Notes: a model not told the origin generated them from the sequence alone. 64,000 nucleotides of DNA from an uncultured Flavobacteriales bacterium (GCA_905182785.1 CAJJDF010000024.1:3954-67953); one strand, 5' to 3'; counted from the first letter of the stretch, positions 17,153 to 34,148 are shown. Translations and numbers: made by a program.

Positions 17153-18199
17153 TTATAACTCTTCATTAAAAAACACTTTGTAAAAATGCATCTTTTTTTC
17201 TTCGTCATACCCTCTTTCTAGATTTTCCTTTACCGTATCTATTTCGTTAGGATCAATCTTTATTTGAATCATGGTATCCAAAAGAATTTCTGATTTTATT
17301 TTCTTCTTTTCCTTCTTTAATGTTGTTTGCTCAATATTGAAACTTGCTTCCAAATCTACATTGTGAATTTGCTTATACTCCTCTTTGTATTCTTCAAATT
17401 TATCTGTTATTTCAAACGGCTCAAGTAATTCTTCTTTCAGGATATCAGAGTTTATGAATTCATTTTCATTGAACACTCTCATTGTTTGATTTATGAAATC
17501 TTTTTGAGCCAATGTATCGTTATTTAACACCAGATTTGCCGAAAAATCTGAAATCATATTCAGGTAATGTTTCGTCTGAAAAGAATCGTTATGCACTTCT
17601 TCCAATCCCAGAAAATCATTTTTCCAATACGAAGCGTCATATGAGTTATTGTCTACCGATAAGATTCTAAGTCCATCGTCCTTTTCGGTATTGATTATCA
17701 GACACCCTTTATCTATCTTTTGCAACTTTACTCCTTTGTCAATAATAAAATCGATTCCATCCTCCCTGTGATTGAAGTTCAAAAATTCTAATTTTTTTTC
17801 AATTTTAAAAACTCCAATTGCTGTTGTTATGATATCATTGAATTCAATGTCATGAAATTCAACTACAAACAGTTCTCCTGTTTTTATTTGAGGGTGAATT
17901 GAGTTTTCGTACAAGTGGCCAAGAACTGCATTGGAATAAGGGATAAAATCTTGTTCTTCGTCAAAATATTTCTTTGTCAAATCAAACATAGTGTTGTATT
18001 CCAGGCTGATGTGATGCGAAAATTTATTGAGCTCAATGGATGTTTTTACCGAACTCAAAAAGAAACTTTTTAGTGCTTTATCTTCTTTTTCAGATAAACT
18101 CACCTCAGCTTTCGCCAAGAAATTTAACTCTTCTTTTGTTTTACTTCCTACTTTCTGGAGAGTAATGCGCTCTATAAATGTTCTTTTTGTGTTTAGCAT
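17153..18199 (-). CDS. possible nucleoid-associated protein (NdpA/YejK-like)
   Basis: 348 aa. N-terminal ITLQKVGSKTKEE resembles the lHxVGNK opening of Bacteroidota NA37-family proteins. The central DKGCLIIN...VDNNSYDASYWKNDFLG block also fits. Recognition is by memory only. Confidence 0.45.
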   Translation of the reverse strand: MLNTKRTFIERITLQKVGSKTKEELNFLAKAEVSLSEKEDKALKSFFLSSVKTSIELNKFSHHISLEYNTMFDLTKKYFDEEQDFIPYSNAVLGHLYENSIHPQIKTGELFVVEFHDIEFNDIITTAIGVFKIEKKLEFLNFNHREDGIDFIIDKGVKLQKIDKGCLIINTEKDDGLRILSVDNNSYDASYWKNDFLGLEEVHNDSFQTKHYLNMISDFSANLVLNNDTLAQKDFINQTMRVFNENEFINSDILKEELLEPFEITDKFEEYKEEYKQIHNVDLEASFNIEQTTLKKEKKKIKSEILLDTMIQIKIDPNEIDTVKENLERGYDEEKKMHFYKVFFNEEL

Positions 18200-18436
18200 C
18201 TTTTGGATTTTAAAAGACGAATTTAAGACATTGAAATAGTTATAGAATACTAAAGTCTAATTTATCTTTCAATAGATTAAATAATTCTTTTTGGTTGTGT
18301 GTATAAATGCCTTTAATAGGGAACATCTTTAACTTGTTTCAGAATTTATTTTCGGCAAACTGGTTAATAAAAATAGGATACAAAACAAATAGGAATTAAG
18401 CGGTTATTATTCTTAGATAGAAACGAGATTAATTGG

Positions 18437-19717
18437 TTAAACCACTCTTGGGTTTCTTAAGTCATTAAAATACTGATTCAACAGATTTTCAGAAAAATAG
18501 GGATAGTTTAATTGTGTCGCCAAACTTAAATAACGAGCTTTATAGATAGATTTTAACTCCAATGAATCCGTTTCTGAATAGTTGAAAATGAGCACGATTA
18601 AATTAATGAACTCTTCATAGTTAGCTCGTTTTTCTTTGGGTTTATAATGCTCAGAAAACAGCTTCTTTTCAGGCTCTTTATTTATTAATTTATAGTAGAA
18701 CATGCACATCAAATAATAGATATTTATATGCTGCTTTTGGTAGTAAAATTTAGGTTTTATATTCGGAGATATTTCATTAACAAGATAGCCCATTAGCTTA
18801 ATATTACCGGTTATAATAGCAATAATAGTCAGCTCATAGGACAATTCCAGCTGGAAGGTGTTTTTCTTATCGTTAGATTGAAAGTATGGGGCTAATAATA
18901 ATTCTATTGTCTCGTAATTATTCGCCAATATTTTAATCGATAATATTCTTCCCAAAAGAATTGGATGAAGGTCATGAAGTGTTGGAGAATATTCAACCCT
19001 ATCGTTTACATTTTTAAGGAGTAAAAAGTTTTTAAGTTGAGTAATCGCTTCACAGAAATAGGTTATATCGGTGAGTTTAGTTGTTTTTGATATGCTGGAA
19101 GTCCAATTCCCATAATAGCCCGTTAAACTTGAGTAATCTACAAAAGTTAGGTACACACATTTTAGAAAATTAGTGTTTGTTAATAAGATAATTTCAGAAT
19201 CTAGTTTTTGAACCCTTAGTAATAAGCCAATAGAGTTTCCTAATAATAAAACTTCTGAATAAGTGAAGTTTTCATAATTTAACTCTTTTAAATTGAATAA
19301 TTTATTGAGTAAATCATATCGTTTTAAATGAAATAATTCTCTGGATAATATGATAATTAAATTAATAAAGTCATCCGAAGAGTTATAAATAGATTTTACT
19401 AAAATAACCATTTCATCCTCTTTAGGGTTATTAACGATCTCAAATAAAAGAGTAAAAAAATTACTCTTTTCTTTTAAAAAAAAATTTTGAGTAAAATGCA
19501 CATAACTTTTATAGCCCAGGTATTCTGATAAAATATTTAACGTATTACTATTTGGCTTTGTTTCTTTAGAAACTACAAACATTCTACTTAAAGTATTATA
19601 ACTAATACTCTTATCTATTGTTTCTAAGATTATATTTGATAACAATTCACAATCTCCTCGGCTTTTAATTTTAAAGCCAATTTTAGTTTGAATTTCAGAT
19701 TTTAGTGGAAAAGTCAT
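18437..19717 (-). CDS. hypothetical protein with an HTH-like N-terminal segment and an all-alpha-looking body
   Basis: 426-aa ORF with no competing frame. N-terminal ...ISYNTLSRMF...PNSNTLNILSEYLGYKSYVHF resembles a short DNA-binding module seen at the start of many Bacteroidota orphan proteins. Extremely AT-rich: hand counts of two 60-nt lines gave about 18-23% G+C. Confidence 0.45.
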   Translation of the reverse strand: MTFPLKSEIQTKIGFKIKSRGDCELLSNIILETIDKSISYNTLSRMFVVSKETKPNSNTLNILSEYLGYKSYVHFTQNFFLKEKSNFFTLLFEIVNNPKEDEMVILVKSIYNSSDDFINLIIILSRELFHLKRYDLLNKLFNLKELNYENFTYSEVLLLGNSIGLLLRVQKLDSEIILLTNTNFLKCVYLTFVDYSSLTGYYGNWTSSISKTTKLTDITYFCEAITQLKNFLLLKNVNDRVEYSPTLHDLHPILLGRILSIKILANNYETIELLLAPYFQSNDKKNTFQLELSYELTIIAIITGNIKLMGYLVNEISPNIKPKFYYQKQHINIYYLMCMFYYKLINKEPEKKLFSEHYKPKEKRANYEEFINLIVLIFNYSETDSLELKSIYKARYLSLATQLNYPYFSENLLNQYFNDLRNPRVV

Positions 19718-19820
19718 TTTTGTATCATTTTTGTATCAAATGTAAGGATTAATTTTAATAGTTTTCAAAAATAATGTGAGTCATAGCCCTATTTAAATTA
19801 TGAAACAAAAAAAATAATAA

Positions 19821-20000
19821 CTTGCCTTATGTCTATAGCAACTAAATCTACTGGAACTCCCACATTAAGGGCATCAGTAACTTGAATAATGGCTTCGTTT
19901 GCTTTGGTCAATGCTTCGTAATAAAGAACATTTGTAATAACAATTTGTTGCTCTTAGAATTGCCAATTTCAAAATTAAACACAGCTTAATTTTGAAAAAC
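19821..20000 (-). pseudogene. decayed fragment of a second mnmE (3'-proximal region, no start, frameshifted, lacks the last 29 codons)
   Basis: Collinear, same-orientation similarity to 32849..~33040 inside the intact mnmE. The fragment translates to QQIVITNVLYYEALTKANEAIIQVTDALNVGVPVDLVAIDIRQ, versus QQVVVTNVRHFEALTNANEAIVQVTNALNIGIPGDLVAIDIRQ in mnmE. There is an in-frame TAA and a 10-nt deletion just upstream of this block. Confidence 0.75.
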
Positions 20001-20012
20001 TTTTCTTCTCCA

Positions 20013-23000
20013 TTATCGCACGATAATGATTTTTTTTCTCACTGAAAAAGATTTACTATTTAGAACTAAAGTGTAAGAACCACTTTCAAAGGAATTAACA
20101 GGTATTTTTATATTTTCATCTGTGGGCATTTCCTTTTTGAAATAAACCAATCGCCCTATTTCATCAATTATCGTTATAGAAATGTCTCCTTTAATTTCTT
20201 GTTTCAGAACCTCAACAGTAAGTATCTCATTTACTGGATTAGGATAAACTTTAACTTCAAAAGCATCTTTTGAAACATTCTCTAATTTAACTGAATTGAT
20301 AGAAAAACAAGCTGTTGTATCTAAACAACCTTCAGGTGTAGTTATAATACAAGCATAATTCCCATTAATGATAGGAGTAAAACTTTGGTTTGTATCCTTA
20401 GGATGGAAAGAATAATTACTGTCACAATTAACCCATTTATAAAGCACACCTGTTGATGCTATAGTCAAAGTGGCCCCAATTGTTGTAACTGCACCTGCAG
20501 TTGGAACAATATAAATAGTGCTTGTTTTAGTTAATGAATCTATACCAAAAGAATTGGTAGCCAATAAATTTACAGTGTAAAGTCCAGAATTCAGAAAATT
20601 TACTTGGGGTTGAAAAGAGCTACTATCTGTACTGTTTTGGTAGCTAAAAGCAGCAGGGCTAACACTCCAATTATAAGAAGTGGCATACTTCGTATTATTA
20701 TTAAAAATAGCAGCTTGATTTGCACAAAGTATTGTATCGTTTGTATTAAAAGAAACTAAAGGAAAACGATTTATGGAAATATCATCTATTGCTAAATCTC
20801 CACTAAATCCATTGCCCGTTTTACCTCTGAATCTTACAACAATTTTTTGTCCTGTAAAAGGAGAAAGGTCAACTGTTTTTTCAATCCATAAATTACCTTG
20901 GTCTCCAATTATTGAGGAAGAAACATCATTAATCCATTTCCCATTTGATAAAACATCAACATGTAAACTTCCTATTGTAGAACCATACATGTGATACCAA
21001 AATTTAAGGGTAGCAAAAGAAGAACTTGTTAAATCGATACAAGGGGAATTTACTAATGCATCTTTGTTTGGACAAGGTGTTGAAGTTTCAAGGTAAAGAT
21101 ATTTTCCAGTTCCAGAAGTATGGTCAGAAGGTGGACCAGTGTTTGCTGTAGCAGTTCCGCTATGATCCGTTCTCCAATCTATACTATCTCCAATTAATGA
21201 AGGTGTATTTGGTACGTTATACCATCCGTCCATAAGGCTACAAGAAATACCTGAACAACCCCAAGCAGTAGAACAATCAGTAAATGAATCGAAATTTTGA
21301 TCGTATGGAAGGCTAACTGTTGAACAGGAATAAGAAACCAGAACCAACAAGGCACTATCGTTAGAACTTAAGACATCACTTGGTTTCTCAGACCAAACCT
21401 TGATACTATCAACTCCAAGGCTAAGTGAAATACTATCATTAAAAGTGTGTACTAGAACATTCCCAATTGGTATACTTCCAAATAGGGTATCTGCATATAT
21501 AAGCCCATTATTTTGTTGAAACTTAACTATGAGACTATCCATAGCTTTTGTTCCGGTATTCCTTAAATTTATTTTAATAGGGAACTTTCCTTCATAAACA
21601 CAATAAGGAATATGACTGCTAGCCATTACAGTTTCAATAGCAACATCTTCTCCAATACAGTTGAAATCAGTTAAAGGGATTTCAATAGCTATTACTCTTC
21701 TACTTATTGCTCCTTTAGGACCATAAGCTTGAACGCTTAACCAGTCTGTTTGTGAAGAACTCAAACCTGTGATCAATACAAAATTATTGTTTGTAATAGT
21801 CAAAGAGTCCATGTATTTATTTCCAAGTTTTGATATTTTATAGTAAGATGCTGAATCCATATTGTCCCATTGAAACAAGGCCGAATCGGCACACCTCCAA
21901 AGCATAGAGAAGTTTTGAACTAAAGGCATAATATTAAAGGCTTCTATACTATTGCTAATTATAGAACCTCTATTTAATTTAACTATAACTTTTCCGCTTA
22001 TTACATTGGGTACAGTCCAAGCATATCCTCTTACTGTATCATTTATACCAGTAGCTATGGATATCCAATTAGCTCCACTATCTACAGAATATTTTAAATC
22101 AAAACTACCTGGAGTACCATAAGAATCCCACTGAATGTATTCTGTTTCCCCAGGGACAAAATGCTCTCTCCCTAAAGGATATGTTAATAATACTTCTTCG
22201 TATAAAAATTCATAAGTAAGGAAATATTTTTGAGGTCCTTGAGGTATTAAAGTTCCGTTTATTGATATTGAATAATTTCCAGCTATTGGGTTTGATATTG
22301 TAACTTGCTCCACGTTATTTAAATTATCTAATGCTCGTATAGCAGGCTTTCTCAGACTATCCAAATGTGGTGCTGGATTAAGAACCCAGGGAAAATAAGT
22401 TGTATTTCCAGGACTGATTACTGTCATATCCAAATTATTCACCAATGCTTTTACTGGTATTGAGGTAGAAGCCGGATAATCTGCCCAATGAACCAAAACA
22501 CGTAATTCTTTTACATTGGTCGGGACTGTAATAGAATGACTCTTGTTTGTTCCATTTGCTATACTTGCTTCAATAAATCTATTTTCTTGAAAAACTGAAA
22601 ATGCACGTCTAACATTAACTCTACCAAATCCTGTACGGAAATCTGGACCTGGATTTTCCATGTCATCACAAGTATTTAAAAGAACCGTTTTTATCAAAGA
22701 TAAATGAGGTGTACTTCCTCCATTCACTGATTTATAACTATGAACCAATTGTCCTACGACACCAGATATTTTAGGTGCTGCATGAGATGTTCCTCCACCT
22801 CCTTCTATCATTAAATCAGGTTTTATTCTTCCATCATAGGCTGGTCCTTTTGAACTAAAACCAGATCTTTTATCCAGATTATTACAGGAACCAACAGCAA
22901 ATGTATTTTTAGCTTGTTTTACCCCTCCAGTTAAATTTGCATACCCACTAATTCCAACATATGGACCGTAAGTACTAGCATTATTACTTTGATTCCCAGC

Positions 23001-24047
23001 TGACCAACTGTGTAAAGGTCCAATACTGTCTCTTATATCTTGATCCCTAACAGTACCAGCCGACCAAGCACTCATCCCTATCCCGTAACCATAAGAATGA
23101 TTAACTGAGACAAGACCAACAGTAGAAAAATAAGTGTTATTAGAATTATTATTGTTTAGAGACAAAACATTTGCTCCAGAAGCAATTCCCTCATTAATTG
23201 GATTTAAATTTCCAGCACCAGCCATTCTATAAATTACTCCTCTCTTATGTCCCGAAATAGTCCCTGAACCATATTCAGTAAGCCTCCCTTCTATTTCAAT
23301 TCTATTGTCACTGGTGTCATAAATCCCTCCTTCTTCAACTGCTACAGTTGTTCCTGCTCCATCAATATTTAAATTATTAACCGGATTATTTAACCAGTTT
23401 GTTCTTCCTGTTGTGTTAAAGATTGTTCCCTCCAAACTTGGTGTTGGATTAATTGATTCAATAAATTTTATTTCCTGGACAGCTAATAACTCTTCTATTT
23501 TTAAAATTGGGATTTGCACTTCGAAATTATGTTCTTGTAAAGAGTAATTCAAAATTTTTCCAATTTTTGAAATCTTTTCTCTGGCCTTACTATTATCTCC
23601 CAAAAAGATTGCTAGCACTTTTATTTCGTCTCCAAAAAGAATATGATTAGGATATTGTTTTTTATATAACTCTGGACTTAGCTTAAAACGATTATCTAGG
23701 TTAAATACAGCACGAACCTTTATAGTATTGAAAACATCTAAATTTCTGTTTTTTGCAAAAGTAGCTATGTAGGCATAATTCGGAATGTAATCGTCCAGTT
23801 CTATCCCAGCTTTTTTAAGTTCTAGTCTTTCTTTAGCTGTTGGTATATCATAGAATTGAATAATCTTACAAGAAAACTCTGTTTGAGTAGATAGTTCAGA
23901 AATTAAAGTCTGATGATTTTCTTGAGGGAGAAAACTTTCATTTAATAACTGAATAGTGTAGTTTTTGTTTTGAGAAAATGAGACAGTTATTGCCAAAAAA
24001 AAGAGACAAAAAATACCTAGTCTTCTGATTTTCAATAATAAATTCAT
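20013..24047 (-). CDS. secreted S8 (subtilisin-like) peptidase homologue with a MAM domain and T9SS C-terminal sorting domain
   Basis: 1344 aa with a signal peptide. GTSHAAPKISG serine box (Ser codon 22787..22785), SAGN oxyanion box and a GH box. MAM domain (GPPSDHTSGTGKYLYLETS...LKFWYHMYGSTIGSLHV...GDLAIDDISI, about 20720..21230). C-terminal VYPNPVNEILTVEV...GSYTLVL is the CTD. Confidence 0.8.
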   Translation of the reverse strand: MNLLLKIRRLGIFCLFFLAITVSFSQNKNYTIQLLNESFLPQENHQTLISELSTQTEFSCKIIQFYDIPTAKERLELKKAGIELDDYIPNYAYIATFAKNRNLDVFNTIKVRAVFNLDNRFKLSPELYKKQYPNHILFGDEIKVLAIFLGDNSKAREKISKIGKILNYSLQEHNFEVQIPILKIEELLAVQEIKFIESINPTPSLEGTIFNTTGRTNWLNNPVNNLNIDGAGTTVAVEEGGIYDTSDNRIEIEGRLTEYGSGTISGHKRGVIYRMAGAGNLNPINEGIASGANVLSLNNNNSNNTYFSTVGLVSVNHSYGYGIGMSAWSAGTVRDQDIRDSIGPLHSWSAGNQSNNASTYGPYVGISGYANLTGGVKQAKNTFAVGSCNNLDKRSGFSSKGPAYDGRIKPDLMIEGGGGTSHAAPKISGVVGQLVHSYKSVNGGSTPHLSLIKTVLLNTCDDMENPGPDFRTGFGRVNVRRAFSVFQENRFIEASIANGTNKSHSITVPTNVKELRVLVHWADYPASTSIPVKALVNNLDMTVISPGNTTYFPWVLNPAPHLDSLRKPAIRALDNLNNVEQVTISNPIAGNYSISINGTLIPQGPQKYFLTYEFLYEEVLLTYPLGREHFVPGETEYIQWDSYGTPGSFDLKYSVDSGANWISIATGINDTVRGYAWTVPNVISGKVIVKLNRGSIISNSIEAFNIMPLVQNFSMLWRCADSALFQWDNMDSASYYKISKLGNKYMDSLTITNNNFVLITGLSSSQTDWLSVQAYGPKGAISRRVIAIEIPLTDFNCIGEDVAIETVMASSHIPYCVYEGKFPIKINLRNTGTKAMDSLIVKFQQNNGLIYADTLFGSIPIGNVLVHTFNDSISLSLGVDSIKVWSEKPSDVLSSNDSALLVLVSYSCSTVSLPYDQNFDSFTDCSTAWGCSGISCSLMDGWYNVPNTPSLIGDSIDWRTDHSGTATANTGPPSDHTSGTGKYLYLETSTPCPNKDALVNSPCIDLTSSSFATLKFWYHMYGSTIGSLHVDVLSNGKWINDVSSSIIGDQGNLWIEKTVDLSPFTGQKIVVRFRGKTGNGFSGDLAIDDISINRFPLVSFNTNDTILCANQAAIFNNNTKYATSYNWSVSPAAFSYQNSTDSSSFQPQVNFLNSGLYTVNLLATNSFGIDSLTKTSTIYIVPTAGAVTTIGATLTIASTGVLYKWVNCDSNYSFHPKDTNQSFTPIINGNYACIITTPEGCLDTTACFSINSVKLENVSKDAFEVKVYPNPVNEILTVEVLKQEIKGDISITIIDEIGRLVYFKKEMPTDENIKIPVNSFESGSYTLVLNSKSFSVRKKIIIVR

Positions 24048-24187
24048 TGCTTCTTATTTTAATTATCGATTGTTAATGTATTGATTTGCTATAAATATAT
24101 TCTTGTGAAGATAACTTTTTTTTTAACAAAAAAATAAAAGGGAAAATTATGTTAGCTTCGTTAAGAAGCCATTAAAACAATTCAATT

Positions 24188-27100
24188 ATGTTAAGAAAAT
24201 TTATTGCTGTATTTAGTCTTTTTAAATCTTCTTATTTTTTCTTTTTAATTGTTGTTGCTTTCAATTTTAATACACAGGCACAAATTTTCCCCTACAATGA
24301 TGGTTTAGAGCACAAAAGTCTATATCAAGGTGTCCCAAATATGGGGGTTGGGACAGTTGGAGGAAGCGGGAGTGGATTGCAAGGTTTAACCCTAAAATGG
24401 GAACCAACTTTATCCTCATTTTATGATAATGGAAGTATTATTGCACCTTCCCTAGAGTTTCTTGCTAAGGGATGGATGAATAAAATTGATGGGAGTAAAA
24501 AATTAAACGAAATTTCTATACCAGGTACTTACGAATCATGCGCTTATAATTTAATAGGTGGTGGCCCAGGTGGTACTTTTGATAGAACGAAACAGTCTCA
24601 AGGGATGGATATTTTTCATCAATTAAAAGCAGGAATAAGATATCTTGATGTTTATGTAAGTTATAACTTTTTGAATCCTACTTCAAAATGGACACTTACC
24701 ACTGATAACAATCATTATTTAGGGATGAATTTTGACACAGTTTTGACTCAAATAAATAATTTCATGTCTATACCGGGAAATGAAAATGAAACCATCATCA
24801 TTCATCTTGAAGCAAGAGGAATTAAAACTAATTTTAGCACTAGCCTGTCAAGTTATATAGCAAGTGAAAATACAACTGTTGGCTATGCTAGGATGATAAA
24901 TCCTAAATACACCCAAATACCAACCATTGGTTCATTAAGAGGTAAGATATATGTAATCGATAATGAAAATGGTGATGACGCAAGTGTTGGTTTAGTTCGT
25001 ACTGAAACAAATACAGTCGGAGGAAGATCTACTAGCGCTTTTACAGGCATAGGGGCTGATGCAAAAAATCTTATAACTTCAGCTAAAACTAGTAGCTCTT
25101 GGGTAGTTAATGATATTGCTGGAAGACCTCTTTTTAAAGATAAAGCAGCATATGAAAAAGCTTATGTCAACAAACCTGTATTTGAAGAACTTAACAATGT
25201 TCAACAAAAAAATAGTGCCGGGACTATTGTAATGGCTTTTCCTGGACAAGGACTGATTTATAGAATAATAAAAACAAACTTTTTTTATATAAGGCGTGTA
25301 GATATAAATTTCCAATTTGATTGTTATCACAGTGGTCTTAGTTCCTCATCTACAGGATATGTTTACGTTAGATATTATAGAGGAAGTACTCTAGCTGCTT
25401 GGGATCATTTAGTGCCAGATTGTGATGGTTATTCTGATGGTTATTCTCATGTTGACGTAAGAGTTCCTGGAGATGGTCAAATTCCTGTTACTCACATTGA
25501 AGTAGAATCTGCTAATTATAGTAAGTTTTTTATGGATGAATTATACTTAAATGAGACAAAATTTGGAGATAATCAATGGGATCCGGAAAGAGGATGTGAT
25601 GATTGCGAAGCTGACAAAATTCTTAGACAATGGGGGATAGATGGAGGGGGTACTTGGGATATTTCTCTAGACCCTGCTAAGGGAGTCGCTTGCGTAAGAT
25701 TTGAAGTCCCAAATGGTCTTGCCTATAATTGTTCGACACCAACAAGTCTTTCCACATTATATGATTGTAATATTACAAGTGTAAGCCATACCGACCCTAT
25801 TTGTGCTGGTGATTCAACTGGTCAAGCAGCAGTTTCCGGTTTTCAATCAAATTCCCCTCCCTTTTATTATTCTTGGTCAAATGGAAGTAATAGTGCTTCT
25901 GTAAATAATTTACCAAGGGGAAAACACACTGTTATTGTTAATGATAATTCAGGATGTTATAAAGATACTACTATCGAAATTGTAGATCCTCCTGTTGAAA
26001 ATTTTACAGAAATTTCTAATTCTAGCAGATATCTTTGTTTGGGTGAGAGTATGGATCTTTGGGCTAAAGGAAATGGGACGGTTCTTTGGTATACTTCACC
26101 AACTGGCGGCTCTCCTATTGCTACCACAAACTCAGGAGGGATCTTTACTGTTACACCAACAATTGCGGGTATAACTACATATTATGCAGAACTTTTGACT
26201 CCGTTAGGTTGTGTTTCATCAAGTAAAATAAATAGGCAAGATTTTCGCATAACAGTTAATCCATTACCTGACGCACCCATAAATATTTCCGCTATTCCAT
26301 CTGTAGTTTGTCATCATGAAGGATTTCCATTATTACAAGCTACAGATCCAGATAATTCTTCGAGAATACTATGGTACACTCAACCAACAGGAGGGACACC
26401 ATTTCGTAATACAATTCCAGGTGGAAATATCCAAGTTTCCCCTACAATTGCTGGAATAAATAATTATTATGCAGAGACAGTTTCTTCTTTTAGTTGTATA
26501 AGTGCAGCTAGAACACCTGTAAGTGTTCTAGTTCATCCACAACCAGCTAATCCAATTTTAACCGCTACACCCAATTCAATTTGCCCTGGAGATAGTATAA
26601 TTTTTAATGGAACTGGAGGTTCAACTATAGAATGGTTCGGGAATGGAATAGATAGTACGACTATATCAGGTAGTAACTATAAAAATGCTCCTACAACAAT
26701 TTTTGGCTCAACTAAATTTCGTGCTCAAGCTATCTCAAATTTTGGCTGTACAAGTGAATTATCTGATGTTTCTGTATATGGTAAATGGATTACAGAAGTA
26801 GATCAAACTTTAGCTCTTCCTTCCAATATTTGTCTTTTAGGTACCTCTACCGATCTATATGTAAATGGTTATACAGGAGCTACTGTAAATTGGTATACAG
26901 ACTCTCTAGCCGGTAGCTTAGTAGGTAGTGCAATAAAACCATCAAATTACACTGCAACTCCAACTAATACAGGAGTAACTAAGTACTATGCTGAATTAAT
27001 ATATAACGGATGTGTAAGCACAAAAAGAGCCCCTGTATCTGTAGAAGTTAACGCTACTTTTGCTGCTACAAATGTTACTGCAAGTCCATCACAAGGATGT

Positions 27101-30100
27101 ATTGGTGATTCAATTAAACTAAATGCAATAGGTGGTGCTACAATTTTTTGGTATGATGAATCTATGACTTTAAAAGGCTCTTCCGCTTCTGGAGAAGACT
27201 GGGTAGTTTTTAAGTTTTCCCCTGGTACATATAAATATTATGCTGAAGCTAGAACTAGTACTTTTTGTCAAAGTTCAACTAAAACTGAGGTGATATTTAC
27301 TATAAATCCTACTCCAGCTATGGTGCCAGATGTAACATCTCCAACATCTTTATATGCATGTCCTGGTGACACACATGTGTTTAATATTACTACTACAGAT
27401 GGAGCTGGTATTAACTGGTATTCTTCAATAAATGGTGGCGTGTTACTTGGAAGTAGAGCAAGTGGCGGTACTTATAAAGCTGATTCTATAGAAGAAGGGA
27501 CAAATTATTATTATGCGGAAGCAGTATCTAGTTTCGGATGTGTGAATATTAATAGAACACCCGAATTAATTATTGGTCGTCCTCAACCTGGAGCTCCAAT
27601 TTTAACTTCCACACCATCTATACTATGTGAAGGAGAAAGCAGTAATTTAGTATCAACATTTTCAGGATCTGGTACAGATGCTAATTGGTACTCAGATTCA
27701 CTTGCTACCAACTTAATTGGAAATATAGGTTCGCATTTAAATTTTCCCGTATCCCCATTAATCTCTGGAAATAACACTTATTACGCTAAAGGAGTTTCTT
27801 TTCATGGTTGCATAGGGGATTCTATTTCTGCAGTAACTGTTGCTTTGAATCCAAAGCCTATTATATCTAATGCTTCTGTAGTTTCAACTAAATTATGTGA
27901 AGGAGGAAATATTGATTTAGTAGCTAACTTATCAGCCAATGAGTTTGATGGTTTTTATGCTCCTGCTAATTGGAGTCATTCTACTATTTCTGGAAGTACA
28001 CTTGATACTTCAAATGCTCCAAATTCTATTTCTTTTACCTCTGGAAATAATATTGGAAACACTGATTTAGATAAAGGGATTTTATCTTCTACTCAAAACA
28101 TTATTATTTCATTCGATTGGGCTTATTCAGCAACTTTAAGTCCTGACATTCCTCAATTTGTAATTGATGGTATTGCTTCAAACCTACCTAAATTTGTTGT
28201 TAATGGCGGTTCTATTCAAACCGGGACAGATACTATTATTGTCCCAGTTGGAAAGTCATTTTCTTTAAGTATAAATAGTCAATTTACAAATGGAGGAACT
28301 ACCATTTCATACACAAATTTTAAAGCTTCTCAGGAGTTATCCAATGTTATTGTAAACTGGTATGATATGCCTACTGGGGGAACTTTATTAGGTAGTTCAA
28401 TGCCTGATTCTATTTTTTCTTATACTCCATCTACAACTGGTTTAATAAATTTTTATGCTGAAGCCGTCTCTCCATCAGGTTGTTTGAGCCCTTCAAGGGC
28501 TTTAGTTTCTGCTACAATAAATCTTAATCCAACATTAATTAGTGCTCTGCCAAATAAAGATTCTGTTTGCCTTTATGATAGTAGTAAACTTGTAATTACT
28601 GCTACAAACAGTAATTTAATCAACTGGTATGTTTCTGATAGTGGTGGTGTTTCTATCGGTAATACTCTTCCAGGTTCAAATTTCACAATCTTCCAAGATT
28701 CTATTGGAATAAAAAATTATTTTGCAGAAATTATTTCAGCTGCAGGTTGTTTTGATACATTAAGAACTCCTGTTAATGTATTTGTTAAATCATTGCCTGC
28801 AAACCCTGCTGATGCAATAGCTAACCCATCTATCATTTGCTATGGAGATAGTATTTCTTTAAGTGGATCTGGTAATATCAAATGGTATTTGGCTAACTCA
28901 AATTTAGATTTAATTGATAGCACCACCAATGGTGCAAATTTAAAGATAAAGCCTGATAGTGCTGGCAATAATTATTATTATGCAGTAGCTATTTCGGACT
29001 TTGGTTGTATAAATCCTAATGGAAAAGCAATATTAGTAGTTACTACTCCTTTGCCAAATGCACCTACTAACGTCACTATAAATTCTCCTGTTTGTTTGAA
29101 TGATACAATAACAATGAGTTCTTTGAGTAAAGTAAATTGGTATAATGATTCAACCGGAGGAATAAGTATTGGGAGAACTAATGTTGACACAAATATTGCT
29201 ATTGTTCCTTCACAGCCTGGAACTTACTCTTTTTATGCAGAGGCAGAAAATGAAAATGGGTGTATTTCTTTAGCTAGAACAAAAGTTACAGCTCAAGTTA
29301 ATCAATCTTATTCAACAACAAATGGGGCTTCTACTCCTTCTATTATTTGCCTAGGTGATAGTTCTCTTCTAAATACAACACTAACAAAAGATGATTTTAT
29401 TGGGTTTTATTCTCCAAACAAATGGCAAACTTGGGGAACAAATGTGGATACTACTGGATCTCCATCATTTATTACTCTTAGTACATTAGGACAAACTTCA
29501 GATCCTGAATTTAATAGAGGATTACTAAGTATGACCCATTCTACAACCATCACATTTAATTGGAATTGGACTCGAACTTCTGGAACAAATTCGCCTCAAG
29601 TTTGGGTTAATAGTTTAGGATATCCAGTCCCAGGATTCAGTTATTCCAGTTCTCTAACTCAACAAAATGGAACAGCAACTATAATAGTGCCAGCAGGTCA
29701 TACTTTTGGATTTAGAATTAGAAATTTAATCTCAACCAATAGCTCTTTTAGTATCTCAAATTTCAAAAGTTCGATTTCTGGTGTTTCTGGTAGCATTAAT
29801 TGGTATACAGATTCAATTGGTGGTTCTAGCATTGGAAATTCACAAATTGGAGAAAACTTTTCTACTACTCCTTTACAATCAGGATTAAACACTTATTATT
29901 CTGATGTAAATGTAAATGGATGTATTAGCGATAAAAGATCAATGAACACTTTAAATGTAAAAGCTTTACCTACAGCTCCAACTAGTGTTTTAGGATCACC
30001 TAGCAATATATGTATGGGGCAAAATACTAACTTAAGTGCAACAGGAGGAACAATTAATTGGTATACAGATTCAATTGGTGGTTCTAGCATTGGGAGTTCA

Positions 30101-32686
30101 TTATCTGGTGCAAATTTCACAATAACGCCTTCGCTTTTTGGGATAAATAAATATTATGCCGAAAATGTTTCTGCTTCAAATTGTAGCAGTGAATCTAGAA
30201 CTTTAGTTACTGTATCAATATTTCCAGCAGTTCTTTCACCTTCAAATGTTACCGTTAGTAGTGATTCAATTTGTTTAGGTATGAGTACAAATTTAAACGC
30301 AACTGGAGATTCGATAGTTTGGTATACAGATTCAGTTGGCGGAACTAGTTTGGGAAGCTCTGCTTCTGGAGGTGATTTTACAGTCACACCTAATGTAAAA
30401 GGAACAAACAAGTATTATGCAGAAAACAATTCTACCAATGGATGTGGAGCAAATTCTTCGAGAATAATGGTTTCTGTTCACGCAGACACTTTGCCTGTTG
30501 CCTTAATAAATATTCCTGCAAGCCCTCAGGTAATTTGTTTTGGAGATAGTGGTATTTTAAATGCTTCAGGAGGAACTATTACATGGTATTCAGATTCTAT
30601 TGCTGGAATAACTTATGGAAATTCCGATACGGGTATAGACTTTAAAGTATTACCCGCAATAAATGGTAAAAACAATTATTATGCTGAAGCGGTTTCTATT
30701 GCTGGATGTATCAGTTCTAAAAGAGCCCAAGCTATTCTTACAACAAATCCTTTGCCTGATAAACCTATAAATTTAATAGCGTCTCCAGCAACTATTTGTT
30801 TAGGAGCTTCAAGCGACTTGTCTGGCGAAGCTTTGAAAGTATTTATTGATTTCAAAGATGATTTCGACCCAATAAATTGGACTGCATCTAATGGACCCTC
30901 TAACGGGGTCGTATATCAAGGTTGGGCTCCCGGTGCTATAAGAATGAGGACTGGTAATGGGGCTACTGGAAACACTGATTTTATAAGAGGTGTCATTAGT
31001 ACAACTGCAGATGCAACAATAATGTTTAATTGGGAATTAGATGAAAAGGGTTCTGGAGTAACTTTTTTAAATTGCAATTCCGGACATTACTTAATAAATG
31101 GTATAGAATATAATTTGACAGCAAATATATATAGCACTAGCACTGGTTCTTTTAGATGGGGTGCCGATACAATTATTGTTCCTGCAGGAAGTACGTTTGC
31201 ATTAAGAGCAAAAACCTCAAAGGTTAGCCATTATGCTATTGTGGCCTATAGTAGTTTTAAAGTTTCTCTTCCTTCAGGAAATATCAATTGGTATACTGAT
31301 TCTGTTGGAGGGACAAATCTAGGTAACTCTAATTCCGGAAGCAACTTTAACGTTACTCCTAGTTCATCAGGGATAAACAATTATTATGCTGAAACTGTTT
31401 CTTGGGACGGTTGCACAAGTAGTTCTAGAGAATTAGTAGTTGTAAAAACTTTCATCCCTTCAAGTGCAGATACTCATACTTCTTGTACTCCATTTTTATG
31501 GATAGATGGCAATACATATTCAAGCAGTAACAATACTGCAAAAGATACAGTTGTAAATTCCAAAGGATGTGATTCTATCATACATTTAGATTTAACTATA
31601 TTTCAACCAACAACTAGCTCTCAAACATTAGTTGAATGTCAAGGGTTTTCTATTGTAGTTGGAACTAATACTTATGATTCTACTGGTATTTATATAGATA
31701 CATTTACAAACAATGTTGGATGTGACTCAATATTTACTACTAACCTAACAATTAATCAACCTACTTCTGGCTCTCAAAATTTTGTTGAATGTCAAGGATT
31801 CTCTGTTATAGTTGGATTGAACACTTATAATTCTTCTGGAGTTTTTAAAGACACTTTAACTAATAATGATGGGTGTGATTCTATTTTAACTACTACTCTG
31901 ACAATTAATCAGCCAACTTCTGGTTCGCAAACTCTTGTTGAATGTCAAGGGTTCACTGTTATAGTTGGAACAAACACTTACAATTCTTCTGGAGTTTTTA
32001 AAGACACGTTAACTAATAATGATGGGTGTGATTCTATTTTAACTACAACCCTGATTATTAATCAACCAACTTCTGGTTCGCAATCACTAGTCGAATGTCA
32101 AGGGTTCTCTGTTATAGTTGGAACTAACACCTACGATTCTACAGGAATATACATAGATACTTTAATAAACAATATTGGTTGTGACTCAATATTTATAACT
32201 ACTCTGACCATTAATAGTATTGACATTTCAACTAATATAGTAGGAGTAACTATTTCTTCTAATTTGACAGGAGCAAATTATCAATGGTTAGATTGTAACA
32301 CTGCTTATCTTCCAATAATGATGGAGAATGGACAAAGCTTTACAGCTACTTCAAATGGAAATTACGCAGTCGAAATAACAGTTGGTACTTGTGTTGATAC
32401 TTCAGTATGTGAAAATATAATCTCTGTTGGAATACCAGAAAAAGTGATAAATATTGTTTCTATTTATCCTAATCCTACAGAAGGGTTCTTTACAATTGAT
32501 TTAACGGGTATTAAAGAAATGTCATCCTATACTATAACAACTGAAGAGGGGCGATTAATAGAAAAAGTAAGCCTTGAATCACAAGAAATAATAAAAGTTA
32601 ATTTGATCAATGAAAGTGCTGGAGTTTACTTCTTATTCTTAGAGGGCAAAAACTATAAAAAAATGTTTAAAATTATTAAACTATAA
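24188..32686 (+). CDS. 2832-aa T9SS-secreted giant surface protein: PI-PLC-X-like domain, SprB-type repeat, 16 Ig-like repeats (3 with nested inserts), 51-aa tandem repeats, CTD
   Basis: One uninterrupted ORF with a signal peptide. ISIPGTYES...GIRYLDV...ETIIIHLEAR resembles bacterial PI-PLC. CAGDSTGQAAV...YYSWSNGS...GKHTVIVNDNSGC is a SprB-type repeat. There are sixteen units of the pattern C.G....L.A...(I/V)NWY.D..GG...G......P.....YYAE.....GC.S.R. C-terminal IYPNPTEGFFTIDL...GVYFLFL is the CTD. Confidence 0.85.
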   Translation: MLRKFIAVFSLFKSSYFFFLIVVAFNFNTQAQIFPYNDGLEHKSLYQGVPNMGVGTVGGSGSGLQGLTLKWEPTLSSFYDNGSIIAPSLEFLAKGWMNKIDGSKKLNEISIPGTYESCAYNLIGGGPGGTFDRTKQSQGMDIFHQLKAGIRYLDVYVSYNFLNPTSKWTLTTDNNHYLGMNFDTVLTQINNFMSIPGNENETIIIHLEARGIKTNFSTSLSSYIASENTTVGYARMINPKYTQIPTIGSLRGKIYVIDNENGDDASVGLVRTETNTVGGRSTSAFTGIGADAKNLITSAKTSSSWVVNDIAGRPLFKDKAAYEKAYVNKPVFEELNNVQQKNSAGTIVMAFPGQGLIYRIIKTNFFYIRRVDINFQFDCYHSGLSSSSTGYVYVRYYRGSTLAAWDHLVPDCDGYSDGYSHVDVRVPGDGQIPVTHIEVESANYSKFFMDELYLNETKFGDNQWDPERGCDDCEADKILRQWGIDGGGTWDISLDPAKGVACVRFEVPNGLAYNCSTPTSLSTLYDCNITSVSHTDPICAGDSTGQAAVSGFQSNSPPFYYSWSNGSNSASVNNLPRGKHTVIVNDNSGCYKDTTIEIVDPPVENFTEISNSSRYLCLGESMDLWAKGNGTVLWYTSPTGGSPIATTNSGGIFTVTPTIAGITTYYAELLTPLGCVSSSKINRQDFRITVNPLPDAPINISAIPSVVCHHEGFPLLQATDPDNSSRILWYTQPTGGTPFRNTIPGGNIQVSPTIAGINNYYAETVSSFSCISAARTPVSVLVHPQPANPILTATPNSICPGDSIIFNGTGGSTIEWFGNGIDSTTISGSNYKNAPTTIFGSTKFRAQAISNFGCTSELSDVSVYGKWITEVDQTLALPSNICLLGTSTDLYVNGYTGATVNWYTDSLAGSLVGSAIKPSNYTATPTNTGVTKYYAELIYNGCVSTKRAPVSVEVNATFAATNVTASPSQGCIGDSIKLNAIGGATIFWYDESMTLKGSSASGEDWVVFKFSPGTYKYYAEARTSTFCQSSTKTEVIFTINPTPAMVPDVTSPTSLYACPGDTHVFNITTTDGAGINWYSSINGGVLLGSRASGGTYKADSIEEGTNYYYAEAVSSFGCVNINRTPELIIGRPQPGAPILTSTPSILCEGESSNLVSTFSGSGTDANWYSDSLATNLIGNIGSHLNFPVSPLISGNNTYYAKGVSFHGCIGDSISAVTVALNPKPIISNASVVSTKLCEGGNIDLVANLSANEFDGFYAPANWSHSTISGSTLDTSNAPNSISFTSGNNIGNTDLDKGILSSTQNIIISFDWAYSATLSPDIPQFVIDGIASNLPKFVVNGGSIQTGTDTIIVPVGKSFSLSINSQFTNGGTTISYTNFKASQELSNVIVNWYDMPTGGTLLGSSMPDSIFSYTPSTTGLINFYAEAVSPSGCLSPSRALVSATINLNPTLISALPNKDSVCLYDSSKLVITATNSNLINWYVSDSGGVSIGNTLPGSNFTIFQDSIGIKNYFAEIISAAGCFDTLRTPVNVFVKSLPANPADAIANPSIICYGDSISLSGSGNIKWYLANSNLDLIDSTTNGANLKIKPDSAGNNYYYAVAISDFGCINPNGKAILVVTTPLPNAPTNVTINSPVCLNDTITMSSLSKVNWYNDSTGGISIGRTNVDTNIAIVPSQPGTYSFYAEAENENGCISLARTKVTAQVNQSYSTTNGASTPSIICLGDSSLLNTTLTKDDFIGFYSPNKWQTWGTNVDTTGSPSFITLSTLGQTSDPEFNRGLLSMTHSTTITFNWNWTRTSGTNSPQVWVNSLGYPVPGFSYSSSLTQQNGTATIIVPAGHTFGFRIRNLISTNSSFSISNFKSSISGVSGSINWYTDSIGGSSIGNSQIGENFSTTPLQSGLNTYYSDVNVNGCISDKRSMNTLNVKALPTAPTSVLGSPSNICMGQNTNLSATGGTINWYTDSIGGSSIGSSLSGANFTITPSLFGINKYYAENVSASNCSSESRTLVTVSIFPAVLSPSNVTVSSDSICLGMSTNLNATGDSIVWYTDSVGGTSLGSSASGGDFTVTPNVKGTNKYYAENNSTNGCGANSSRIMVSVHADTLPVALINIPASPQVICFGDSGILNASGGTITWYSDSIAGITYGNSDTGIDFKVLPAINGKNNYYAEAVSIAGCISSKRAQAILTTNPLPDKPINLIASPATICLGASSDLSGEALKVFIDFKDDFDPINWTASNGPSNGVVYQGWAPGAIRMRTGNGATGNTDFIRGVISTTADATIMFNWELDEKGSGVTFLNCNSGHYLINGIEYNLTANIYSTSTGSFRWGADTIIVPAGSTFALRAKTSKVSHYAIVAYSSFKVSLPSGNINWYTDSVGGTNLGNSNSGSNFNVTPSSSGINNYYAETVSWDGCTSSSRELVVVKTFIPSSADTHTSCTPFLWIDGNTYSSSNNTAKDTVVNSKGCDSIIHLDLTIFQPTTSSQTLVECQGFSIVVGTNTYDSTGIYIDTFTNNVGCDSIFTTNLTINQPTSGSQNFVECQGFSVIVGLNTYNSSGVFKDTLTNNDGCDSILTTTLTINQPTSGSQTLVECQGFTVIVGTNTYNSSGVFKDTLTNNDGCDSILTTTLIINQPTSGSQSLVECQGFSVIVGTNTYDSTGIYIDTLINNIGCDSIFITTLTINSIDISTNIVGVTISSNLTGANYQWLDCNTAYLPIMMENGQSFTATSNGNYAVEITVGTCVDTSVCENIISVGIPEKVINIVSIYPNPTEGFFTIDLTGIKEMSSYTITTEEGRLIEKVSLESQEIIKVNLINESAGVYFLFLEGKNYKKMFKIIKL
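31604..32215 (+). repeat. in-frame tandem repeat, 4 x 153 bp (51 aa), inside the giant gene
   Basis: Unit starts at 31604, 31757, 31910 and 32063 (exact 153-bp period). Units 2 and 3 are nearly identical over their 3' two thirds. A more diverged fifth unit precedes the array (about 31479..31603). Confidence 0.9.
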
Positions 32687-32698
32687 AAATCTTAAACC

Positions 32699-32730
32699 AA
32701 AAAAAGCTCCTCATTTGAGGAGCTTTTTTT
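32699..32730. terminator. bidirectional rho-independent terminator between the convergent giant gene and mnmE
   Basis: Stem agctcctc (32705..32712) pairs with gaggagct (32717..32724), loop attt. A-run upstream and T-run downstream. Confidence 0.7.
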
Positions 32731-32759
32731 ATCTATAATTTAAATGTAATACTGCTTTC

Positions 32760-34148
32760 TTACTTTCCAATACAAAACTTACTAAATATATTTCCTAGTA
32801 ACTCATCTGTAGATATCTCACCCGTAATCTCACCTAAGAAATGAAGTGCTTGCCTTATGTCTATTGCAACTAAATCTCCTGGAATTCCTATATTAAGCGC
32901 ATTAGTAACTTGTACTATTGCTTCATTGGCATTTGTCAAAGCCTCAAAATGACGCACATTAGTTACCACAACTTGTTGCTCTTGCGATTGCTTAGAATTA
33001 GTAATCTCAATAATCTTCTGAGTCAGTTCTTCTATATTCTCTCCTTCCGAAGCAGAAATTTGAGTACAATCGATTGCACTTAATCTTGATTTATCTTCCA
33101 ATAAATCTATTTTATTAGCTACCCAAATTACATCAATTGTTTCGTTTGTCAATTGAGATTTCAAAAGTTTAAATTCTTTTTTTACTTGTTCCAAGTCTGC
33201 ACTAGCGTCAAATAAATACAAGATAATTGCAGATTTTCCTGCTTTCTCAATTGCTCTTTGGATTCCTATTTTTTCTATCTCATTTTCTGTATCACGAATT
33301 CCTGCTGTATCAATAAATCGATACTTTATTCCTTCCATCACTATTTCATCTTCTACAATATCACGGGTTGTTCCAGCAATACTGGATACAATTGCTTTTT
33401 CTTCTTTCAAGAATTTGTTCAGCAAAGTAGATTTACCTGAGTTGGGTGCTCCAATAATTGAAATTGGGACTCCATTTTTAATTGCATTTCCAAAAGAAAA
33501 AGATTCTATCAGGCTTTTTAATTTCGTCTCTATGCGTTCCAATAATTCATTCAATTGGGTTCTATCTGCAAACTCTACATCTTCTTCACTAAAATCTAAT
33601 TCCAGTTCAATAAGCGAAGCGAAATTTATTAATTCCTCTCTGAGTCCATTTATTTCATCAGAAAACCCTCCACGCATTTGTTGCATGGCTAGTTTATGAG
33701 AAGCCTCAGTTGTGGAAGAAATTAAATCTGCTATTGCCTCTGCCTGCGATAAATCAAACTTTCCGTTTGCAAAAGCTCGCATAGAAAACTCACCAGCTTT
33801 AGCTAGCCTCACTCCTTTTTTGATTAGGAGTTTAAGAATTTGTTGCTGGATATAAACCGACCCGTGACAAGCAATCTCTATTACATCTTCCCCTGTGAAT
33901 GACTGCGGATTTTTGAAAACAGTTAATAAAACTTCATCCACTATATTTTCTTCCTCTTTTATCACCCCAAAATGAGCTGTATGCGATTTTTTATCGGATA
34001 AATCTTTAGAAAAAATAGAAGAAACGACAGGAAATGCTTCACTTCCTGAAACACGAATTACTGCTATCGCTCCCATTCCGTTAGCAGTAGAAAGGGCACA
34101 AATTGTATTGGTAGAATCTAAAATCATGTGCAAATTTAGGTTTTTCAA
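32760..34148 (-). CDS. mnmE: tRNA uridine-5-carboxymethylaminomethyl modification GTPase MnmE
   Basis: 462 aa. G1 GAPNSGKST, G3 DTAG, G4 NKID. The C-terminal FCIGK tetrapeptide is diagnostic of MnmE/TrmE. Confidence 0.95.
   Translation of the reverse strand: MKNLNLHMILDSTNTICALSTANGMGAIAVIRVSGSEAFPVVSSIFSKDLSDKKSHTAHFGVIKEEENIVDEVLLTVFKNPQSFTGEDVIEIACHGSVYIQQQILKLLIKKGVRLAKAGEFSMRAFANGKFDLSQAEAIADLISSTTEASHKLAMQQMRGGFSDEINGLREELINFASLIELELDFSEEDVEFADRTQLNELLERIETKLKSLIESFSFGNAIKNGVPISIIGAPNSGKSTLLNKFLKEEKAIVSSIAGTTRDIVEDEIVMEGIKYRFIDTAGIRDTENEIEKIGIQRAIEKAGKSAIILYLFDASADLEQVKKEFKLLKSQLTNETIDVIWVANKIDLLEDKSRLSAIDCTQISASEGENIEELTQKIIEITNSKQSQEQQVVVTNVRHFEALTNANEAIVQVTNALNIGIPGDLVAIDIRQALHFLGEITGEISTDELLGNIFSKFCIGK

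Follow-up and report, generated by a model that had tools for sequence, protein, structure and literature searches.

A relic of mnmE inside a variable gene island of an uncultured marine Flavobacteriales bacterium

Marine flexible genomic islands are variable among strains, occupy a fixed position between core genes, and often encode giant surface proteins. Their usual mode of exchange is clean homologous recombination in the flanking sequences, with no relic left inside. The locus described here lies in a stretch of 64,000 nucleotides (nt) from an uncultured Flavobacteriales bacterium (GCA_905182785.1, CAJJDF010000024.1:3954-67953; the whole stretch is called the window, and positions are counted from its first letter). 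It resembles such islands in its fixed position between core genes, content that differs by species and strain, divergent flanking gene ends rich in single-nucleotide polymorphisms (SNPs), giant surface cargo, and unremarkable base composition. It is unlike them in that one event appears to have been additive and left a relic, which is a short piece of mnmE, the gene that borders the island and is still present there in intact form.

In the effector-immunity arrays of Rhs, contact-dependent inhibition (CDI), and type VI secretion system (T6SS) loci, recombination is anchored in a conserved upstream coding region, new cassettes are placed beside it, older ones are pushed downstream with co-oriented fragments of the anchor 3′ end between them, and the arrays vary among strains (Kirchberger et al. 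2017, PMC5361080). A sequential displacement model has been proposed for the displaced gene-end arrays of T6SS effector-immunity and Rhs loci (PMC5361080). The layout in the window is alike in all these respects. It differs in that the anchor is a housekeeping tRNA-modification gene and not a toxin gene, the cargo consists of surface and protease genes secreted by the type IX secretion system (T9SS) plus one uncharacterised gene, with no toxin-immunity logic, and only one relic is present, which has lost its own 3′ end.

Islands of the SGI1 family use the 3′ end of trmE (= mnmE) in Gammaproteobacteria, where the attachment site is a conserved 18-bp sequence (PMC8409611, PMC6531882). The target gene and the targeted end are the same here, direct mnmE repeats also bracket foreign DNA, and the gene is likewise intact. 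Here, however, the repeat is an internal segment of 143 nt without the terminal 89 nt of the gene. SGI1 encodes its own integrase and mobilisation genes, whereas no recombinase is found between the repeats of the window, the phylum is another one, and the cargo is unrelated. SGI1-family elements also carry a mobilisation module (oriT, mpsAB) and depend on an IncA/C helper plasmid. A survey of open reading frames (ORFs) and domains gave no candidate genes for such a module between the repeats; oriT was not searched for. Gene-end relics marking flexible islands or integration hotspots are a well-known phenomenon, and the present locus is a new example of it, with no new mechanism.

The mnmE relic and its selective history

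The intact mnmE gene (32760..34127, minus strand) encodes 455 amino acids (aa) from an ATG at 34127 and carries TrmE_N, MMR_HSR1, and MnmE_helical domains. The relic lies in the spacer of 295 bp (19718..20012) between the gene for a 426-aa protein and that for an S8-like peptidase (S8 gene). When the spacer was compared with the whole window by BLASTN, its single strong non-self match was a segment inside mnmE (19821..19955 against 32849..32983, 80% identity over 135 nt, gapless, E 7.9e-24). With a second scoring scheme, 19821..19963 in minus sense matched 32849..32991 (minus strand) at 113 of 143 nt, ungapped and in frame, and the pair was also recovered by an independent repeat search of the window (family D3). 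The relic (19821..19963, minus strand) corresponds to mnmE nt 1137-1279, i.e., codons ~381-426. It contains an in-frame block of 44 codons (19822..19953), the peptide of which, EQQIVITNVLYYEALTKANEAIIQVTDALNVGVPVDLVAIDIRQ, aligns to mnmE residues 383-426 (numbered from the ATG at 34127) with 33/44 residues identical. An earlier note on the window, made from its sequence alone, had claimed a divergent, dead mnmE copy in this spacer, collinear with the gene and in the same orientation, and the claim holds; its count of 23 differing codons, 12 of them synonymous, was exact. The similarity had also been drawn out to about 20000 (about 33040 in mnmE), but homology past ~19968 was not significant (p = 0.09 against shuffled sequences), and that stretch overlaps an AT-rich hairpin belonging to the S8 gene.

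All loci of relatives used for comparison (L001, L091, L106, etc.) were metagenome contigs or metagenome-assembled genomes (MAGs). An identical relic spacer was present in eight independent conspecific assemblies and a variant spacer in a ninth (NCBI MAGs, TARA, ENA, and Logan), and every recovered conspecific contig spanning the spacer between the S8 and 426-aa genes carried the relic. It is, therefore, not an assembly artefact.

The relic has no start codon and no C-terminal tail, and a TAA stands immediately upstream of the 44-codon block. This stop can be read without a gap as CAA changed to TAA, so the 10-nt deletion that had been invoked to shift the frame onto it is not required. The last 29 mnmE codons (427-455) left no trace in 19718..19820 or elsewhere in the window, in agreement with the loss noted earlier. 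The replacements had been described as mostly conservative, yet several are not. The changes R to L and H to Y fall in a TNxRH motif, of which R-H is retained in all mnmE genes compared, and G to V falls in a GDL motif retained in most of them. Two relic haplotypes within the species are distinguished by three amino-acid changes, one silent change, and an extra in-frame TAA in the second. The relic is a non-functional piece of mnmE.

Two further observations were made on the variable part of the relic. Four nucleotides differ between its haplotypes within 14 nt (19850-19863) in genomes otherwise 99.3% identical, and the homologous mnmE codons 410-416 (~32880-32900) are also hypervariable in the conspecific loci L104 and L105.

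The selective history was examined by Nei-Gojobori counts of dN/dS (omega) for the two relic haplotypes against the resident gene. The proportion of synonymous differences (pS) was 0.48-0.54 (dS about 0.75-0.96), that of non-synonymous differences (pN) 0.09-0.11, and omega 0.10-0.16. For full-length mnmE of the window species and its nearest relatives, omega was about 0.05. Histories were also simulated conditional on the observed number of synonymous differences. A local copy that had always been neutral was expected to show 31.7 ± 7.6 non-synonymous differences and a pair of functional genes 4-8, whereas 9-11.5 were observed; none of 934 neutral-decay simulations gave 11.5 or fewer. The relic and the resident gene diverged in a manner that fits a history mostly under purifying selection followed by a short decay of the relic. 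The origin proposed earlier, in a functional and independently evolving mnmE and not in a recent copy decaying neutrally, is thus upheld by both omega and the simulations.

The relic was 79-81% identical at the nucleotide level to conspecific alleles, 76-78% to L106, which is the closest other species (mnmE 93% identical in amino acids), and 68-73.5% to more distant members of the genus. In a neighbour-joining tree of 143 nt, it fell inside the clade of the window species and L106 (95% bootstrap) on a long separate branch, its placement within that clade being unresolved. Third-position identity was 0.60-0.69 between relic and resident gene and 0.65 between the window species and L106. To judge from these values, the source was an mnmE allele at roughly the distance of a sister species, and neither a distant lineage nor the present within-species diversity. 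Placing the fragment on an mnmE tree had been proposed in the earlier note as a way to tell the resident's own lineage from another; the relic groups with the resident's subclade, though as a long branch, and a distant lineage is not borne out. A scan of metagenomes with a degenerate DNA pattern for a functional allele of the relic type gave no matches, and a protein search with the relic peptide returned just the relic itself, called as a 37-aa ORF.

A variable island between mnmE and NA37

In genus relatives whose contigs reach that far, the order of a porV-like gene, greA, HIT, sucD, and mnmE is conserved, and the sucD-mnmE pair is retained in all genus relatives examined. In every genome compared, the sequences diverge right after the mnmE stop codon. 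The interval from mnmE to the gene for the nucleoid-associated protein NA37 (17153..18199, minus strand, in the window) is spanned by contigs in four genus relatives, in which the NA37 orthologues are 72-93% identical and lie from 123 nt to four genes downstream of mnmE. The shortest interval was found in L187 (mnmE 86% identical to that of the window), where mnmE is followed by 123 nt, NA37, RNaseT/GIY-YIG, UDG, era, holB, PSP1, gldH, and PBP; past NA37, this order is exactly that of the left-hand block of the window. One epimerase gene precedes NA37 in L186 (mnmE 87% identical), a PIF1-type helicase gene in L102 (89%), and four genes in L100 (88%). In a fifth relative, L011 (84%), what follows is a defence-like island that includes a STAND ATPase. 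Neither the 426-aa and S8 genes nor the relic were found in the mnmE interval of any of these five, and no second mnmE gene or longer relic was found among the genomes sampled. When metagenomes were scanned with mnmE, distant Flavobacteriales dominated the output, and L106 and L107 were the only close loci in it.

Given the empty site in L187 and the other cargo in relatives, 18200..32759 of the window is a variable island between two core genes, mnmE and NA37, and holds the 426-aa gene, the relic, the S8 gene, and a giant gene. The empty site agrees with the insertion point at the mnmE 3′ end claimed earlier, as do the excisionase and integrase genes that follow the mnmE stop codon in L106. 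Since none of the four relatives spanning the interval has the 426-aa gene there, this gene is itself cargo, and the relic lies inside the island and not at its edge. Two expectations of the earlier note were affected: the comparison of synteny that it proposed did reveal an empty site, but no 426-aa gene adjoining mnmE, and its reading of the relic as the far edge of the inserted segment was not borne out.

The other side of the sucD-mnmE pair is variable in the genus as well. Upstream of sucD in L187 (1-8406), the greA, HIT, and porV-like genes are replaced by two large T9SS cargo genes (beta-helix/fn3, 1911+ and 1448 aa).

Within the species, the island is variable too. The order on the minus strand of the window is mnmE, giant gene, S8 gene, relic, 426-aa gene, and NA37, with the relic co-oriented with mnmE and between cassettes. 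Two further MAGs (L091 and L092) are 99.3% identical to the window on both sides and have no giant gene: behind their mnmE stop codon, an unrelated spacer of 105 nt leads straight to the S8 gene, which is co-oriented with mnmE, and the relic and 426-aa gene come next, as in the window. Between the window and L091, dS was about 0.08. A third assembly (L105) has the same junction of mnmE stop and S8 gene, after which the contig ends. A different sequence follows the mnmE stop in L104, so that at least three haplotypes are present in the species (giant gene with S8 gene, S8 gene alone, and an element-type flank). Since the conspecifics without the giant gene have the S8 gene, the relic, and the 426-aa gene, the segment 24048..32758 (plus strand; the giant gene plus flanks, 8.7 kb) is an independent presence/absence polymorphism. 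The two cargo genes, claimed earlier as one 12.9-kb module, are not a unit. The S8 gene, found in L001-L009, L091, and L092, is the sole gene bracketed by both mnmE copies in every relic-carrying haplotype. SNP density rises sharply at both edges of the giant segment: the final 45 nt of mnmE contain nine SNPs and the initial 330 nt of the S8 gene 37. Such clustering is the usual signature of island variants swapped by homologous recombination in the flanks.

Identity among conspecific mnmE genes is 99-100% over nt 1-1136, 92% over nt 1137-1279, and 84-90% over the 89-nt tail. On this evidence, the last ~230 nt of the gene are a recombination mosaic among conspecific strains, and divergent functional 3′ alleles circulate in the population. 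The drop in identity places recombination end points in the region that the relic represents. A patch of five SNPs in L104 and L105 (mnmE nt 1156-1173) matches the relic at 5/5 positions. Gene conversion from the relic was considered for it and dropped, because L106 has 4/5 of these states, which points to a shared allele class.

Possible origins of the relic

The relic is best read, with a probability of roughly 0.55, as the scar of serial gene gain at a hotspot right after mnmE, left by additive insertion of the kind known as homology-facilitated illegitimate recombination. The simplest arrangement in the genus is mnmE adjoining NA37. From this, three cassettes would have accumulated in the direction from NA37 to mnmE, namely the 426-aa gene, the S8 gene, and the giant Ig-repeat gene, which is confined to some strains. 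DNA arriving from a related lineage would have recombined homologously within the conserved 3′ part of mnmE as its anchor, while its far end joined without homology. On arrival of the S8 cassette, mnmE would have kept a complete 3′ end, and the other 3′ copy, from about codon 381 on, would have been pushed downstream along with the older 426-aa cassette. The stranded copy would then have lost its function through a nonsense codon and the changes R to L, H to Y, and G to V, and a later deletion may have trimmed it to 143 nt. The features expected of additive insertion that were found at the locus are the mosaic 3′ part of the anchor, the co-oriented fragment between cassettes, divergence of the two copies as functional alleles (dN/dS far below 1), and a relative with an empty site and unbroken synteny on both sides.

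Several points weigh against this account. The displaced piece should run to the original stop codon, and the last 29 codons are gone without trace, so that the account needs a further deletion, which was not observed. Neither a donor allele nor an intermediate (e.g., mnmE directly before the 426-aa gene) was found in the contigs and metagenomes searched, nor was the pre-insertion sequence recovered, and either of the two copies may be the native one. The relatives are all metagenome contigs or MAGs. Finally, integrase-bearing elements occupy the same gene end in close relatives, by which an enzyme-driven route becomes possible.

Such a route would involve an element with a tyrosine recombinase that targets the mnmE 3′ end, supplies a replacement end, and brought the S8 gene; the integrase and excisionase would since have been lost, and the relic would be the remnant of the far attachment site. 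This is unlikely, although it stands closest to the additive insertion favoured above, and the genus offers much that speaks for it. In L106, the mnmE stop codon is followed by a flank of ~230 nt shared with the conspecific locus L104 and with L011 (regions L106 3059-4121, which takes in the genes after the flank, L104 6356-6489, and L011 11372-11640), which contains the palindrome AGGTACAAATTTGTACCT and copies of GGTACA/TGTACC; palindrome and half-site copies are candidate binding sites of a recombinase. After the flank come an excisionase-family ORF (HTH_17 1.9e-13; TIGR01764 1.1e-10) and a tyrosine integrase N-terminus (Arm-DNA-bind_5, 3.1e-10). Elements of this type, with Arm-DNA-bind_5/Phage_int_SAM_5 integrases and an HTH_17 excisionase, occupy this very site behind the mnmE stop codon within the genus, including one conspecific strain, and the tail of mnmE travels along with them. 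L104 and L106 do not differ in the last 57 nt of mnmE, while the genes are 84% identical overall, as would be expected if the element carries or homogenises the tail of the gene, and the haplotypes with the S8 gene directly after mnmE (L091 and L105) bear an element-type tail at 91-94% identity. Beyond the genus, a self-search of loci from 80 Flavobacteriales and Bacteroidota species gave two with relics of terminal mnmE codons, 1-1.3 kb downstream of the gene. In L078 (9240-10650), the last 26 codons recur behind a two-gene cassette of HTH_3 and Fic/DOC, and in L042 (11404-13636), the last 19 codons stand before an integrase fragment (Phage_int_SAM_5, 74 aa) and a ParD/ParE pair; both are small insertions right after mnmE bracketed by degenerate copies of the gene end. 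Together with the SGI1-family precedent at the trmE 3′ end (PMC8409611, PMC6531882), these cases show that insertions enter repeatedly at the mnmE 3′ end in Bacteroidota, just as in Gammaproteobacteria. The window relic, however, is complementary to what such events leave. It represents nt 1137-1279, ends at codon 426, lies upstream of the terminal ~55-90 nt that element-type events duplicate or share, and lacks these entirely, whereas the distal repeat of an L106-type element would be the terminal segment of the gene. The window haplotype has neither an L106-type HTH_17 excisionase nor an Arm-DNA-bind_5 integrase gene, its mnmE stop being followed by a putative terminator and the convergent giant gene, and no resemblance to the AGGTACAAATTTGTACCT-type flank was seen in the first 220 nt past the mnmE stop of the window or L091. 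Between the repeats, no ORF of at least 80 aa was found outside the two cargo genes, no recombinase or excisionase family was matched by either cargo gene, and a search for tRNA genes was negative. The giant gene came or went independently and left no repeat of its own, and a T9SS peptidase gene with its own promoter and terminator would be atypical cargo for such elements. The earlier note had seen in the geometry a classical displaced gene end, produced by site-specific integration with a replacement 3′ end; as the relic (codons 383-426) is the wrong part of the gene, this reading was ranked below additive insertion. A broader version is doubtful. In it, marine Flavobacteriales would have an undescribed family of tyrosine-integrase elements that attach at the mnmE 3′ end, convergent with SGI1; integrase-less cassettes such as the S8 gene would have been moved in trans or hitch-hiked on an element-borne mnmE tail, and the relic would be a trimmed remnant of the attachment site.

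The low dN/dS, which makes a working gene the source, would also suit the leftover of a complete second mnmE, acquired from a related species by a large transfer or a segmental duplication and reduced to 143 nt by at least two deletions. Both ends of the relic are abrupt and neither is at a gene end, and the 295-bp spacer exceeds the other gaps between neighbouring genes in 14.9-37.3 kb, as for DNA still shrinking. This history calls for more independent deletions than displacement does, though, no sampled genome has two mnmE genes or a longer relic, and the position of the relic exactly between cassettes and co-oriented with mnmE would go unexplained; it is considered improbable. Far less credit is due to a recent duplication in which the resident mnmE 3′ region was copied in tandem and the spare copy has decayed neutrally from then on. 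The direct orientation, the shared locus, and the resident alleles being the nearest nucleotide relatives would fit, but omega should then be about 0.5 instead of 0.10-0.16, none of the simulations of such a history reached so few non-synonymous differences, and divergence at silent sites equals that between sister species. It is equally hard to believe that the relic is retained for a present function, as a small protein or a regulatory leader of the 426-aa gene, despite the 37-aa ORF called over it by one annotation pipeline (in one MAG) and its position ~100 nt upstream of that gene. The differences between the relic haplotypes, including the new stop codon, speak against it, as do the lack of an Rfam family at threshold, the closest 426-aa orthologue (L093) having no such upstream sequence, and the promoter-like motif of the 426-aa gene lying downstream of the relic.

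As the scar of additive insertion, the relic would date and order gene gain at one hotspot of an abundant uncultured marine flavobacterium. T9SS surface and secreted genes, which are the most exposed to phage and grazer pressure, would have been added serially behind a housekeeping gene, with at least one of the additions bringing in sequence whose source lineage was as remote as a sister species. Reuse of the mnmE 3′ end as an entry point in Bacteroidota, as in Gammaproteobacteria, is useful for the prediction of islands in MAGs, and the by-product of the analysis that lends itself best to reuse is this mnmE hotspot in Flavobacteriales, together with the integrase element present within the genus.

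Cargo genes and other features of the island

The base composition of the island is no different from that of its flanks, as had been claimed for the G+C content of the cargo genes. The absence of an integrase, tRNA, and terminal inverted repeats that had been reported earlier also stands: in addition to the searches described above, no terminal inverted repeats were found in the window, the one long inverted pair being T9SS sorting-domain coding sequence common to both cargo genes. Rfam and promoter/terminator scans of the 295-bp spacer gave nothing above chance.

The cassette farthest from mnmE is the 426-aa gene (18437..19717, minus strand), the product of which matched nothing in Pfam or NCBIfam. 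Upstream of it, at ~19738..19770, stands a promoter-like motif of the Bacteroidetes type (TTTG...TAcATTTG); its TAcATTTG box is part of the ~45 nt immediately before the start codon that are conserved in L093. Hundreds of homologues of the protein, 40-55% identical, occur across marine Flavobacteriaceae. The homologues elsewhere stand in unrelated contexts, with no conserved linkage to mnmE. T9SS sorting-domain genes were nearby in two of the three other contexts examined, and the closest copy (L093) is frameshifted.

The S8 gene (20013..24047, minus strand) encodes MAM and T9SS C-terminal sorting domains (Pfam). Directly after its stop codon, and abutting the 5′ edge of the relic, lies the AT-rich hairpin (19967..19997, minus strand; 14-bp stem, -14 kcal/mol, z = -1.9), which was also seen as a self inverted match of the spacer and is probably the terminator of the gene. 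Inspection of the sequence also showed a G+C-rich hairpin with a perfect stem and runs of A and T at its flanks (32700..32731), which separates mnmE from the convergently transcribed giant gene and is probably a bidirectional terminator; it is missing in the haplotype without the giant gene.

The giant gene (24188..32686, plus strand) encodes a protein of 2832 aa with 14 Ig_7 repeats and a T9SS sorting domain. It also contains internal nucleotide repeats, with three copies spaced by 153 nt at 31565-32170 and Ig_7 units of ~261 nt at 29.1-31.4 kb, which may favour assembly collapse and length variation.

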